A stretch of DNA of 45,265 nucleotides. It comes from Planctomycetota bacterium. GTDB taxonomy: Bacteria; Planctomycetota; SZUA-567; H5-PLA8. The translations under genes and the position numbers were made by a program. Positions 11,620 to 15,636 of the stretch are shown here, piece after piece. Location of the stretch: assembly GCA_038227875.1 (NCBI GenBank), contig JBBRPR010000065.1, positions 1 to 45,265 on the forward strand. The letters are read 5' to 3'. Numbering within the stretch: the first letter of the stretch is position 1; each line of letters begins with the position of its first letter. Below the pieces are notes generated by a model. It was not told the origin of the DNA. It saw nothing but the letters and a program-made list of their open reading frames with translations, and made no database searches.

Positions 11620-11670
11620 TTGACTCAATATACAAATATGTATTATATTCCCTATAGGGTTTGTAGGAAT
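11620..11670 (+). promoter_or_regulatory. Sigma70-like promoter and palindromic operator upstream of the Rrf2 gene
   Basis: TTGACT (11620-25), 18 bp, TATATT (11644-49); CCTATA-N5-TGTAGG imperfect palindrome (11651-67) overlapping the RBS. Confidence 0.6.
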
Positions 11671-11675
11671 TCAAA

Positions 11676-12104
11676 ATGCGCGTCTCTCAGAAACTCGATT
11701 ACGCCCTGCACGCGATGCTGGAACTGGCGATCCGCGCCGACCGGCCCGAGAGCGCGCGCACGGCAGAGATCGCGCGGCAGCAGCGCATACCGGAGAAGTT
11801 TCTCGAGGCCATCGTCGTTGAGCTCCGGCGCGCGGGGCTGATCGTCAGTCAGCGCGGACCGGTTGGCGGGCATCGGCTTGCCCGGCCGCCGCATGAAATT
11901 TCGATCGGCGACATCTGGCGCGCGATCGAAGGCGCGCCACCCGATCCGGCGGCGCGCGCCCGTACCAAGAAGGGGAACGATCCGTTTCAGGATGTGTGGG
12001 ATGAAGTCGACCGCGCGACGGCCAGCGTGGTCGACGCAATTACGCTGGCGGAAATGCGCAAACGTAGCGAGTCGCGGCAGAGCGTCCCGGATTTCAGCAT
12101 CTAG
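11676..12104 (+). CDS. Rrf2 family transcriptional regulator, CymR-like (no Fe-S cysteines)
   Basis: DYALHAMLELA, IPEKFLEAI, SQRGPVGGHRLAR, IGDIWRAIEG; no Cys; upstream of cysK; ends DFSI. Confidence 0.9.
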   Translation: MRVSQKLDYALHAMLELAIRADRPESARTAEIARQQRIPEKFLEAIVVELRRAGLIVSQRGPVGGHRLARPPHEISIGDIWRAIEGAPPDPAARARTKKGNDPFQDVWDEVDRATASVVDAITLAEMRKRSESRQSVPDFSI

Positions 12105-12221
12105 TCTAAATGGAGTTGCGAATTGCTCGAAAGGCTCGTACTTCTTAGAGCCTCGATTCACAGGTAAATTGGCGACTGGCTATCTGCGCAGTGTGGCATT
12201 GGAAAACGAGGAGGTTTTGGC

Positions 12222-13190
12222 ATGAGCAAGATTTACGAAGACAATTCGATGAGCATCGGCAACACCCCGCTGGTTCGTCTGAACCGGATCACGGCCGGCA
12301 CGGGCGCGGAAGTCGTGTGCAAAATCGAGGGCCGCAACCCCGCGTATTCCGTGAAGTGCCGCATCGGCGCCGCGATGATCTGGGCCGCCGAACGCGACGG
12401 CAAACTCACCAAGGGCTCCAAGGACGTCACCGTCGTTGAGCCGACTTCCGGCAATACCGGCATTGCGCTGGCGTATGTCTGCGCCGCGCGCGGCTACCCG
12501 TTGATCCTGACAATGCCGGAAACCATGTCGCAGGAACGCCGCCGCATGCTGCGCGCGTTCGGCGCGGAACTGGTTCTGACCGAAGGCGCCAAGGGCATGT
12601 CCGGCGCGATCGCCAAGGCCGAAGAAATCGTCGCCAGCAATCCGAAGAAGTATTTCATGCCGCAGCAGTTCAAGAACCCGGCCAACCCGGAAATCCATTT
12701 CAAGACCACCGGTCCTGAAATCTGGAACGACACCGACGGCAAGATCGACATCCTCGTCGCGGGCGTCGGCACGGGCGGCACAATCACAGGCGTCACGCGC
12801 TACATCAAGCAGGAAAAGAAGCGGGCCATCCGCTCGATCGCCGTTGAGCCGATTCATTCGCCGGTGCTCACGCAGATCCGCAATGGCGAACCGATCAAGC
12901 CCGGCCCGCACAAGATCCAGGGCATCGCCGCCGGTTTCAAGCCCGATGTCCTCGACTTGAACCTCGTTGATGAAATCGTCACCGTCACGAACGAAGAGTC
13001 GATCGAGATGGCCAAGCGCCTCCACAAGGAAGAAGGCATCACCTGCGGCATCTCCTGCGGCGCCGCCGTGGCCGCCGCGCTGAAGGTCGCGCAGCAACCG
13101 CAGAGCAAGGGCAAGCTGATCGTCGTCATCCTGCCGGACTTCGGCGAACGCTACTTGTCGACGGTGCTCTTCCAGGACATCCCGGCTTAA
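12222..13190 (+). CDS. cysK: Cysteine synthase A (O-acetylserine sulfhydrylase)
   Basis: [16 protein letters not shown] (PLP Lys), [31 protein letters not shown]. Confidence 0.97.
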
Positions 13191-13200
13191 GCGCGCTAAA

Positions 13201-13286
13201 GCGCGAGGGGTCAGTTCGCTCGCTAACAGCCGCGAGCGAACCAGTGGGGGTCAGGGGTCAGGGGCCAGAGGTGGGTGTACGCGCGG
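13201..13286. repeat. GGGGTCA heptamer element end with internal hairpin
   Basis: ggggtcaggggtcaggggccagaggtggg matches the termini of the 22970-23236 element; GTTCGCTCGC/GCGAGCGAAC stem at 13214-13241. Confidence 0.7.
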
Positions 13287-13436
13287 GGTTGTGTGTGCGT
13301 CCTGCGCGTGGGAAGTCGGTGTACCACCGAAAAAGAAACAAAGCGCTGGCTGCGGAATGTCCGCAGCCAGCGTCATCTTGAAGCAGTCGGACTTCACGCG
13401 ACGAGACCACTCGAGCAGAAGGACGGGTCAGCGGAA

Positions 13437-13664
13437 ATGGAAAGTCACTCACGTAGCATCGCCAAGACGCTCAGTTGGCGCCTGTGGGCTACGATCATCA
13501 CGACGGCAGTGGTCTACTTCTCGACGCACGAATTCAAGTTCGCGATGGAGATCGGATTGCTCGACACCACCATCAAGCTCGGCGCCTATTTCTTCCACGA
13601 ACGCCTGTGGAACAAAGTCAACTTCGGCCGCGTCGTTGAAGCGCCCAGCGACTTCGAGATCTGA
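13437..13664 (+). CDS. DUF2061 family small membrane protein
   Basis: RSIAKTLSWRLWAT...KLGAYFFHERLW matches the DUF2061 pattern; start set at ATG 13437; ends SDFEI. Confidence 0.85.
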   Translation: MESHSRSIAKTLSWRLWATIITTAVVYFSTHEFKFAMEIGLLDTTIKLGAYFFHERLWNKVNFGRVVEAPSDFEI

Positions 13665-13669
13665 CCTGT

Positions 13670-14833
13670 CTATACGCAGTTGCCCGCGGGGACCCGCGGG
13701 TTCTGTGACAGCACGCGCTGGTACACCGCTTCGTACTTCGAGACGATCTTTTCTGGCGAGAACTGGAGTGCCTTCTTCCGCGCCGCTGCGCCAAACGCGG
13801 CGAGTTTGGCATCGTTGATCAGCAGATCGTAAGCGCGTTCGGCCATGCACTGACAATCACCGACATGGCACAGCCAACCGTCGACGCCCGGCGTGACGAC
13901 TTCGCCCAGGCCGCCGATCTCGCTGGCCAGCACCGGCAACCCGCAGCTCATCGCTTCCAGCGCCGACAGACCGAAGCTTTCGTACGCCGACGGTAGCAGG
14001 AACAGATCCGCGCAGGGCAGAATGTTCTCCACCGACTGCTGCTTGCCCATGAAGAGCACGTCCTTTTCAACGCCGAGTTCCTTGGCGAGGGCGCGGGCGG
14101 GCGGCAGTTCGGGGCCGTCGCCGACCATCAAGAGCCGACAGCGCAGGTCTTTGCGCAGCAGCGCGAAGGTCTTGACCACGTCGGGAATATTCTTCACCGG
14201 CCGGAAATTCGAAACGTGGATCAGCAGCTTTTCGCCATTCGGCGCGAGCTTCTTGCGCTGGCACGGATTGGCATCGCGCTTGGGCAGGAAGCGGTCGGAG
14301 TCCACAAAATTATGGATGACATCGATCGGCGTCTGCTCGACGTTGAAGGTTTTGATCGTCTCTTTCTTCAGGTACTCCGAGACGGTCGTGACGCCGTCGC
14401 TGCGCTGAATGCCGAAGCGCGTCATCTTGAAGAATTGCGGGTCGCTGCCCACGAGCGTGATGTCCGTACCGTGGAGCGTAGTGACGATCTTCAGTTGCTT
14501 GCAGGTCTCCGCGATGACTTCGCGCGCCAGATGCGCACACACCGCCCACGGCACCGCGTAGTGAACGTGGAGTACCTCGAGCTGATGGGTCTCGGCGATT
14601 TCGATCATCTTGCACGCGGCCGTCAGCGTGAATGGGGGGTACTTGAAGAGCGGGTACGAGCCGACTTCGATCTCATGATAGAACAGCCGGTCGGTGTATC
14701 CTTCCAGGCGGAACGGCAGCGCGTAACTGAGCACATGAACTTCATGCCCGCGCTTAGCCAGCTCCAGTCCCAGTTCACTGGCGACCACGCCCGAGCCGCC
14801 GTAGGTCGGGTAACAGGCAATGCCGATTTTCAT
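13670..14833 (-). CDS. bshA: N-acetyl-alpha-D-glucosaminyl L-malate synthase (bacillithiol biosynthesis)
   Basis: MKIGIACYPTYGGSGVVASELG, HVHYAVP, TTLHGTDITLVG, HVSNFRPVK, ESFGLSALEAM. Confidence 0.93.
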   Translation of the reverse strand: MKIGIACYPTYGGSGVVASELGLELAKRGHEVHVLSYALPFRLEGYTDRLFYHEIEVGSYPLFKYPPFTLTAACKMIEIAETHQLEVLHVHYAVPWAVCAHLAREVIAETCKQLKIVTTLHGTDITLVGSDPQFFKMTRFGIQRSDGVTTVSEYLKKETIKTFNVEQTPIDVIHNFVDSDRFLPKRDANPCQRKKLAPNGEKLLIHVSNFRPVKNIPDVVKTFALLRKDLRCRLLMVGDGPELPPARALAKELGVEKDVLFMGKQQSVENILPCADLFLLPSAYESFGLSALEAMSCGLPVLASEIGGLGEVVTPGVDGWLCHVGDCQCMAERAYDLLINDAKLAAFGAAARKKALQFSPEKIVSKYEAVYQRVLSQNPRVPAGNCV

Positions 14834-14853
14834 GAATCACTCCCGCCGACGTC

Positions 14854-14881
14854 GATTCCCGATTCCCGATTCCCAAATCCC
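14854..14881. repeat. Heptamer tandem repeat (GATTCCC)x4
   Basis: gattccc gattccc gattccc aaatccc between bshB1 and bshA. Confidence 0.75.
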
Positions 14882-14889
14882 GAACTTTC

Positions 14890-15636
14890 CTATAACACCG
14901 CACCAATCTCATTTATTCCCAGCGGCCCCTTCACGCAGTACGCTTCGCCGAAATCGACGCCGACCTGGTAGCCGTAGTACGAATGCATGCCCTTCAGCCA
15001 ATCCATGAAGCGCGGGTTGCTCAGCCTGGTTTTGAATTCCTTGGCGCGTCCCTGTCCCGCCCCGCCGGCGCCGAATTGAGTCTGAAAACAGGCGACGAGT
15101 TTCAGCTTCGCCTCCATCACGTCGGTGATGTCGATGACCAGATCCGCCTGAATGCCGTAGCGGTTGTTGTAATGCAGTACGCGTTGCGGGCGGTACGGTA
15201 GCGCGCCTTTGGATGCGACGCCGTGCGCCGATTCCGGAGCGTAGCGCGGCGCGCCGCAGAGCCACGCCGCGTACAGGCCGGCCTGGCCCACGGCCGCGTG
15301 ATCGGGGTGCTGGTCTTCCCAGTGCGGAATCAGGAGCGTTTTCGGCCGGTGCTCGCGCAATGCATCGACCAGCGCGGTGCGCAACGTATCGTCGTCGTGA
15401 AGATGGCCGTCGGGCAGGCCGAGATTTTCGCGCGCGGAAAGTTTCAGCATCCGCGTTGCCGCCGCCGCTTCGCGCTGGCGCGTTTCCGGCGTGCCGCGCG
15501 TGCCCATTTCGCCCCGGGTGATGTCGACGACTACCAGTTTCTTCCGCGCGTGCATGGCTTTCAGCAGCAGTCCGCCGCAGCAAAGTTCTGCGTCGTCGGG
15601 GTGCGGTGCAAAACAAAGGATGTCGCAGGTTGGCAT
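14890..15636 (-). CDS. bshB1: Bacillithiol biosynthesis deacetylase (PIG-L/LmbE family)
   Basis: APHPDDAELCCGG, TRGEMGTRG, RENLGLPDG, DQHPDH; directly upstream of bshA. Confidence 0.9.
   Translation of the reverse strand: MPTCDILCFAPHPDDAELCCGGLLLKAMHARKKLVVVDITRGEMGTRGTPETRQREAAAATRMLKLSARENLGLPDGHLHDDDTLRTALVDALREHRPKTLLIPHWEDQHPDHAAVGQAGLYAAWLCGAPRYAPESAHGVASKGALPYRPQRVLHYNNRYGIQADLVIDITDVMEAKLKLVACFQTQFGAGGAGQGRAKEFKTRLSNPRFMDWLKGMHSYYGYQVGVDFGEAYCVKGPLGINEIGAVL

Follow-up and report, generated by a model that had tools for sequence, protein, structure and literature searches.

The window analysed here is a 45,265-nucleotide stretch of DNA from a Planctomycetota bacterium (contig JBBRPR010000065.1, assembly GCA_038227875.1; host genome 9.3 Mb, 59.6% G+C), and unless stated otherwise all coordinates are positions in this window. 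Among homologues with a name, the closest are from Planctomycetota. The genes in question lie head to tail on the plus strand and encode an Rrf2-family regulator, the cysteine-forming enzyme CysK and a small protein of the Pfam family DUF2061, a family without assigned function (Table 1). Both neighbours of CysK end in a similar peptide, the Rrf2 protein in SRQSVPDFSI and the DUF2061 protein in VVEAPSDFEI (last coding position 13661), as the first-pass annotation of this DNA had read from the two genes when it proposed that both tails dock into CysK. We followed the [DE][FY]xI tail and the DUF2061 family through the host genome, related genomes and other phyla. By analogy with known CysK ligands, we think it somewhat probable that DUF2061 forms a small hairpin in the membrane to which sulfate-assimilation enzymes are anchored and that, at this locus, it docks CysK by means of a cytoplasmic tail.

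Table 1. Features of the Rrf2-cysK-DUF2061 locus (window positions; aa, amino acids; AF2, AlphaFold2).
Feature	Position	Strand	Basis
Promoter-like site TTGACT-18-TATATT	11620..11649	+	5' of Rrf2 gene; 10/12 matches
Rrf2-family regulator, 142 aa	11676..12104	+	PF02082, 107.7 bits
Rrf2 C-terminal tail VPDFSI	12084..12101	+	Sequence; relatives' Rrf2 endings
CysK (O-acetylserine sulfhydrylase A), 322 aa, proposed tail receptor	12222..13190	+	TIGR01139, 465 bits
KPGPHKIQG loop of CysK	12897..12923	+	Sequence
DUF2061 protein, 75 aa	13437..13664	+	PF09834, 66.3 bits; stop codon 13662-13664
Helical hairpin, predicted membrane anchor (residues 4-30 and 33-60)	13446..13616	+	AF2 model
Variable unstructured linker (residues 61-70)	13617..13646	+	AF2 model, alignment
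DUF2061 C-terminal tail SDFEI	13647..13661	+	Sequence

The DUF2061 protein matches its Pfam model from end to end (residues 8-59 on model positions 1-52 of 52; gathering score 23.1 bits) and is the only match, and thus the single copy, in the whole genome. As the match stops at residue 59, the domain does not include the tail. The start had been given as 13275, from which the frame is indeed open; this is too early, since the orthologues (74-76 amino acids) begin MES..RSIAK and thereby identify the ATG at 13437 as the true start. In an AF2 model computed on the alignment (mean predicted local distance difference test score, pLDDT, 81.8), the two helices are followed by residues 61-75 as coil without secondary structure, and pLDDT falls below 50 for residues 72-75. 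DUF2061 thus has, as CysK-docking partners do, a flexible tail outside the folded domain with ligand-like last residues, and both DUF2061 and the Rrf2 protein share with such partners a conserved terminal Ile with free carboxylate.

Conservation of the two tails was evaluated in 41 related genomes, 14 of which carry DUF2061. The gene order Rrf2-cysK-DUF2061 is kept in 8 of these 14 loci. [DE][FY]xI ends 12 of 13 DUF2061 proteins of the relatives, and the neighbouring Rrf2 proteins all end in aromatic-x-Ile (11 of 11), seven of them in the strict form. In a word-indexed search that covered 91 DUF2061 homologues, the tail was present in 43 of the 46 closest (45-100% identity) and in none of the 45 more distant ones; these tail-less homologues mostly end in WGK or WGR, and the named ones are flavobacterial. 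An alignment of 35 tail-bearing DUF2061 proteins (mean column identity 36%) contains eight invariant columns, among them the terminal Ile75, and position 73 (-2 from the end) is Tyr in at least 90% of the sequences. Between the HERxW core and the tail the aligned sequences are variable, and the distance from the core to the C-terminus was 14 to 18 residues in 73 tail-bearing proteins.

The tail is not confined to this locus. Among 48,827 open reading frames (ORFs) of at least 60 amino acids in the whole genome, only 12 end in [DE][FYW]xI, so that the endings of the Rrf2 and DUF2061 proteins exceed a coincidence of letters. Six of these have a family match, and all six are sulfur or cysteine proteins: in addition to the Rrf2 and DUF2061 proteins, they comprise CysA, encoded by the last gene of an sbp-cysT-cysW-cysA operon (EDYSI; TIGR00968, 406 bits), CysH (QDFSI; NF002537, 219 bits), a TauE/SafE-like protein (VDYQI) and a fusion of CysE with TrpC (DDFSI; TIGR01172, 211 bits, and indole-3-glycerol-phosphate synthase, 287 bits). 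The remaining six lack any Pfam match and resemble chance ORFs. For a canonical 12-protein pathway set fixed beforehand, which received three of the motif hits, the hypergeometric p was 2.5e-9. With the motif relaxed to aromatic-x-Ile, a second Rrf2 protein (MMFHI) joins the list. The earlier picture of two proteins converging within one locus was therefore too narrow, as at least seven proteins carry such a tail genome-wide. No tail was found on CysD, CysN, sulfite reductase, SirC, the periplasmic Sbp or the permeases of this genome.

In the relatives, CysA encoded in cysT-cysW context ends in DY[SAV]I in four of four cases, as against none of 22 lower-scoring ABC ATPases, and all nine close CysH proteins end in DF[SNA]I. 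Beyond the relatives, ten other genomes have a DUF2061 that bears the tail; CysA was found in only two of them, in each case with a terminal Ile (GEGI in L197, genome G043; GDYQI in the other). Five of nine distant CysH-like proteins (L147, L148, L149, L151 and L152) end in GxGI or NGNI (GGAGI, GSGI, GAGI, NGNI). Together with the GEGI ending of CysA, these may represent a second class of tail, which resembles the GDGI tail of E. coli CysE.

The fusion protein bears most directly on the identity of the receptor. Serine acetyltransferase (CysE) and indole-3-glycerol-phosphate synthase (TrpC) share one 641-amino-acid frame on the minus strand (G000:C14:110066-111991, equivalent to L011:8067-9992), and such fusions occur across the order, with open frames of 489-642 amino acids. 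In the window's family, 14 of 16 copies end in aromatic-x-Ile directly after the TrpC domain; five complete fused copies from other families have no tail. Given that the acetyltransferase is the canonical partner of CysK, the reappearance of the tail at the fusion's new C-terminus is the best internal evidence that the motif is this organism's CysK ligand.

As for the proposed receptor, no CysK of the genome other than the window's exceeds the family cut-off (351 bits), and the one paralogue scores 312.6 bits on the cysKM model, below the cut-off. As previously claimed, CysK keeps the KPGPHKIQG loop, in which, among 14 CysK sequences, P227, G228 and P229 reach at least 90% conservation, with H230, I232, Q233 and G234 invariant; the role of the KPGPHK segment in partner binding comes from work on plant O-acetylserine (thiol) lyase (OASTL). 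Co-folding of CysK with DUF2061 gave scores of 0.34, 0.27 and 0.25 against a mark of 0.32, in runs without controls, and weighs neither way. Known CysK ligands are of the same type as the motif, a likeness the first-pass annotation had pointed out and which holds for the DDFSI ending of the genome's own serine acetyltransferase: plant serine acetyltransferase tails read DYVI, and a nematode hydroxylase has a C-terminal Ile tail that docks into CysK. For Staphylococcus aureus CysK (SaCysK), crystal structures place the C-terminal decapeptides of CysE (NGEIQDDYII) and CymR (EDLDGYMFYI) in the active site; the CymR peptide bound with a dissociation constant (K_D) of 25 nM, and the terminal carboxylate made four hydrogen bonds (10.1101/2024.09.19.614015).

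Next we examined the genomic context of DUF2061 in a broad sample with one genome per species, obtained with a nine-sequence alignment query. The best 80 of 579 relatives were taken, for which 78 loci were complete; they come from Planctomycetota, Acidobacteriota, Bacteroidota, Verrucomicrobiota, Victivallales, Spirochaetia, Omnitrophota, Myxococcales/Haliangium, Desulfuromonadales and other groups. A sulfate-assimilation gene lies within 2 kb in 58 of the 78 loci, including 24 of 34 loci with a standalone DUF2061 bearing the tail, 10 of 14 with a standalone DUF2061 lacking it, and 23 of 29 in which DUF2061 is fused to adenosine 5'-phosphosulfate (APS) kinase. Typical gene orders are DUF2061-cysH-cysD-cysN and, in Bacteroidota, DUF2061-(sirC)-cysJ-cysI. 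These associations place DUF2061, so far a family without a function, in sulfate assimilation.

The fusions point to the probable cargo. In all ten forms of about 250 amino acids that were tested (L037, L041, L046, L052, L061, L083, L091, L096, L099 and L038), APS kinase sits on the C-terminus of DUF2061. One further locus (L093) encodes a CysN-DUF2061 fusion with DUF2061 at the C-terminus of CysN, and in the protein P0121 two DUF2061 domains in tandem are joined to a CysQ-like domain from the inositol-monophosphatase family, a family that includes the 3'-phosphoadenosine 5'-phosphate (PAP) phosphatase CysQ. None of the 29 APS kinase fusions has a tail, and in the sample as a whole tail and fusion are mutually exclusive, the tail being present in 34 of 48 standalone and in 0 of 30 fused proteins (Fisher p = 5e-11).

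The flanks of these loci served as a control for the specificity of the motif. Only six of 2,615 other ORFs (at least 100 codons) end in the strict motif, and all six encode sulfur proteins, namely two Rrf2, two CysH and two CysN proteins. The two CysN proteins (L054:9962-11764 and L057:10072-11916, from Acidobacteriota and Spirochaetia genomes) end in PEFHI and PDFQI and adjoin tail-bearing DUF2061 genes; the tail thus also occurs on the sulfate-activating GTPase outside the planctomycetes.

These distributions bear on two explanations that dispense with a sulfur-pathway receptor. The tail is widespread in DUF2061 whatever the neighbouring gene, as would be expected if it served DUF2061 itself, for instance in oligomer or lipid contacts, and if its likeness to the other sulfur tails were coincidental or compositional. 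Of all the explanations considered we give this one the least credence, as the motif is nearly confined to sulfur proteins in two independent backgrounds (the ORFs of the genome and the flanks in other phyla) and as the fused forms of DUF2061 lack it. The tail could also be a C-terminal degradation or processing signal that allows joint removal of sulfur-regulon proteins by a protease; C-terminal degrons exist in bacteria, and such a signal could be short, conserved and unstructured, as is the C-terminal motif that these functionally linked proteins share. We consider this highly improbable, given that no protease gene accompanies the tail-bearing genes in the loci examined, that the motif matches experimentally defined CysK ligands, and that mutual exclusion between tail and enzyme fusion fits recruitment better than turnover.

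Docking to CysK presupposes that the DUF2061 tail faces the cytoplasm. Family-mean hydropathy peaks at 1.95 in helix 1 and 1.35 in helix 2, and Lys and Arg are concentrated in the termini (K/R sums: N-terminal part 2.9, loop 1.0, C-terminal part 4.1). In other genomes either end of DUF2061 is fused to cytoplasmic enzymes (CysC, CysN and the CysQ-like enzyme). Together, fusions and charge distribution indicate a cytoplasmic tail, which would put it, on this indirect evidence, in the same compartment as CysK, in line with the docking proposed earlier. Insertion of the hairpin into the membrane is predicted.

Several observations weigh against CysK docking by a membrane-anchored DUF2061. The moderate hydropathy of helix 2 makes membrane insertion a prediction. 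In the broad sample, cysK lies within 2 kb of only one of the 34 tail-bearing standalone copies, and ten of the 34 have no sulfur gene within this distance. Outside the window's planctomycete family, to which adjacency to cysK is confined, such adjacency is not associated with the tail. Enrichment of the tail in cysK-linked DUF2061 had been suggested as a test, and every linked copy indeed carries it (10 of 10: the window's own, eight relatives and L032); as a test of enrichment the comparison is uninformative, because adjacency is family-confined and most standalone copies of DUF2061 have the tail in any case. A CysK that passes the cut-off occurs in each of the ten other genomes whose DUF2061 bears the tail, which hardly discriminates because 11 of 14 control genomes have it as well. 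Two relatives (G005 and G008) keep the Rrf2 and DUF2061 tails and not that of CysE-TrpC, and for the TauE-like protein the relatives yielded only one copy, cut by a contig end. Finally, both samples, the 80 loci and a set of 150 top-ranking representatives of clusters at 50% identity (31 with the tail), consist of the matches closest to a tail-bearing query out of a family of 2,220 clusters, so that their shares are not family-wide.

A further point concerns the acetyltransferase. Of the ten other genomes in which DUF2061 bears the tail, six have a best serine acetyltransferase without terminal Ile, so that the usual partner of CysK is absent there and only analogy names CysK as the receptor of the tail. 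In the other four genomes it ends in DGAGI, NGSGI, LDFQI and IDFVI; a match between the acetyltransferase tail and the DUF2061 tail of the same genome, which we had expected, thus held only in 4 of 10 genomes. The Ile-less acetyltransferases, and the fact that tail-bearing DUF2061 genes usually adjoin cysH/cysD or cysJ/cysI and not cysK, would fit a common sulfur-pathway receptor other than CysK, such as a scaffold not yet described or a domain with affinity for C-terminal peptides; DUF2061 would then anchor this receptor. Counting tails does not settle the matter, as 0 of 7 CysK, 36 CysD, 26 CysI and 10 CysJ proteins in the flanks carry one and the count alone thus singles out no CysK. CysK is, however, the only known receptor of the C-terminal Ile tail of serine acetyltransferase, and the acetyltransferase fusion bears the same motif here and in 14 of the 16 genomes of the family. 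The crystallised S. aureus CysE peptide speaks for CysK as well, and we regard a different receptor as unlikely.

CysK docking might operate as follows. DUF2061 would be a two-helix membrane hairpin with both ends in the cytoplasm that serves as an anchor for sulfate-assimilation enzymes. In many bacteria its cargo would be covalently attached (APS kinase, CysN or the CysQ-like phosphatase), and in the standalone protein the flexible [DE][FY]xI-COOH tail would replace the fused enzyme. The carboxylate of the terminal Ile would most likely enter the active site of CysK, as do the tails of serine acetyltransferase and CymR. CysK could then act as a common sensor of O-acetylserine and sulfide, such that tailed partners would be held when sulfur is sufficient and released when O-acetylserine accumulates. 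In the planctomycete, the tail would have spread to the control points of the pathway, i.e. import, reduction, O-acetylserine synthesis and transcription.

For the last of these control points, the Rrf2 protein had been described as a CymR-like repressor, which holds in part. It contains no cysteines, its best specific NCBIfam model is CymR (NF047409), and its matches in the Protein Data Bank include the CymR structures 2Y75 and 3T8R; its score of 78 bits, by contrast, is well below the cut-off of 195. The second Rrf2 protein, encoded 3.6 kb upstream of the sbp-cysT-cysW-cysA operon (G000:C15:79268-79723, plus strand, equivalent to L008:1269-1724), ends in DMMFHI and aligns end to end with the CymR model at 79.6 bits. 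Both proteins pass the Rrf2 superfamily model (97.9 bits for the window's copy and 116.5 for the second, cut-off 73.3), and at 78-80 bits against 195 both stand outside the CymR equivalog family.

Upstream of the Rrf2 gene, the promoter-like site listed in Table 1 (one of two found, 0.5 expected) overlaps an AT-rich stretch with the palindrome CCCTATAGGG. The promoter region (11640-11675) contains ATTCCCTATAGGG...GGAATTC, and similar elements, TTCCC-ATA or CCCGATAGGG, occur in the same genome 5' of three other genes, which encode CysH, the TauE-like protein and the second Rrf2 protein. These elements may serve as the operator of a shared regulon.

On the other side of the locus, bshA (TIGR03999, 523 bits) and bshB1 (TIGR04001, 209 bits), genes of bacillithiol synthesis, occupy 13670-15636 on the minus strand and converge on cysK-DUF2061, which places cysteine synthesis beside a cysteine-consuming thiol pathway. 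A hairpin of 13 pairs, 10 of them G-C, at 13344-13372 is followed by a T-run, and thus qualifies as an intrinsic terminator, only on the minus strand. As it lies 5' of the DUF2061 start, the bshB1-bshA transcript may run antisense over the whole DUF2061 gene.

Docking to CysK by means of a C-terminal Ile tail is already known; what is new is DUF2061 as a carrier, the assignment of DUF2061 to sulfate assimilation and the spread of the tail through the pathway. A literature search returned only passing mentions of DUF2061, never in a title or abstract; in the same search, which covered literature outside subscription journals, nothing relevant was found on CysE-TrpC-type fusions and, among the papers listed, no report of CysA, CysH or DUF2061 docking to CysK. 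In the genomes examined, the tail is carried by a sulfate-pump ATPase, a 3'-phosphoadenosine 5'-phosphosulfate (PAPS)/APS reductase, CysN and a putative membrane anchor, which goes beyond serine acetyltransferase, CymR, one toxin and a nematode hydroxylase. It is conceivable, though we would sooner doubt than assert it, that in several phyla CysK is a pathway-wide hub, with one active site that senses O-acetylserine and sulfide and reversibly captures recurrent [DE][FY]xI-COOH tails, repeatedly arisen, on CysA, CysN, CysH, serine acetyltransferase, Rrf2 repressors and DUF2061. If so, one metabolite signal would govern, at the post-translational level, import, activation, reduction, transcription and where the enzymes are located, and what is known as a two-protein complex would provide general feedback control of an entire nutrient pathway. 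CysK would then also have more natural ligands than those known, which is relevant to the CysK-binding peptides under development as antibiotic adjuvants (10.1101/2024.09.19.614015).

The proposed interactions resemble four known systems, each in part. In the cysteine synthase complex, sulfide stabilises and O-acetylserine dissociates the complex, and the C-terminal Ile is critical (PMC13040420). The likeness lies in the flexible C-terminal peptide ending in Ile, and the DDYII ending of S. aureus CysE fits [DE][FY]xI; the carrier here, however, is a 75-amino-acid predicted membrane hairpin without enzyme domain, and the acetyltransferase is fused to TrpC. The CymR-CysK complex of Bacillus subtilis and Staphylococcus aureus involves an Rrf2 protein without Fe-S cluster and with a C-terminal aromatic-x-Ile tail, to which the window's cysteine-free Rrf2 protein may correspond, and the YMFYI ending of S. 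aureus CymR is closely similar to MMFHI of the second Rrf2 protein; here, in contrast, the organism is a planctomycete, the Rrf2 proteins score under the CymR cut-off, and the window's copy has a DFSI tail like that of serine acetyltransferase. The proposal that CysK acts at the membrane through DUF2061 and on import through CysA has a precedent in plants, in which OASTL-A binds the STAS domain of the sulfate transporter SULTR1;2 and uptake is lowered (PMC4212615); the contact there is with the STAS domain of a SulP-type carrier, and no C-terminal Ile tail, ABC ATPase or DUF2061 anchor takes part. Finally, the CdiA-CT toxin of E. coli 536 shows that an unrelated protein can acquire a C-terminal Ile tail that mimics CysE and fills the active site of CysK, as two reports describe (PMC4961446, PMC5562914); CdiA-CT is an interbacterial toxin, whereas the carriers described here are housekeeping proteins of one pathway.

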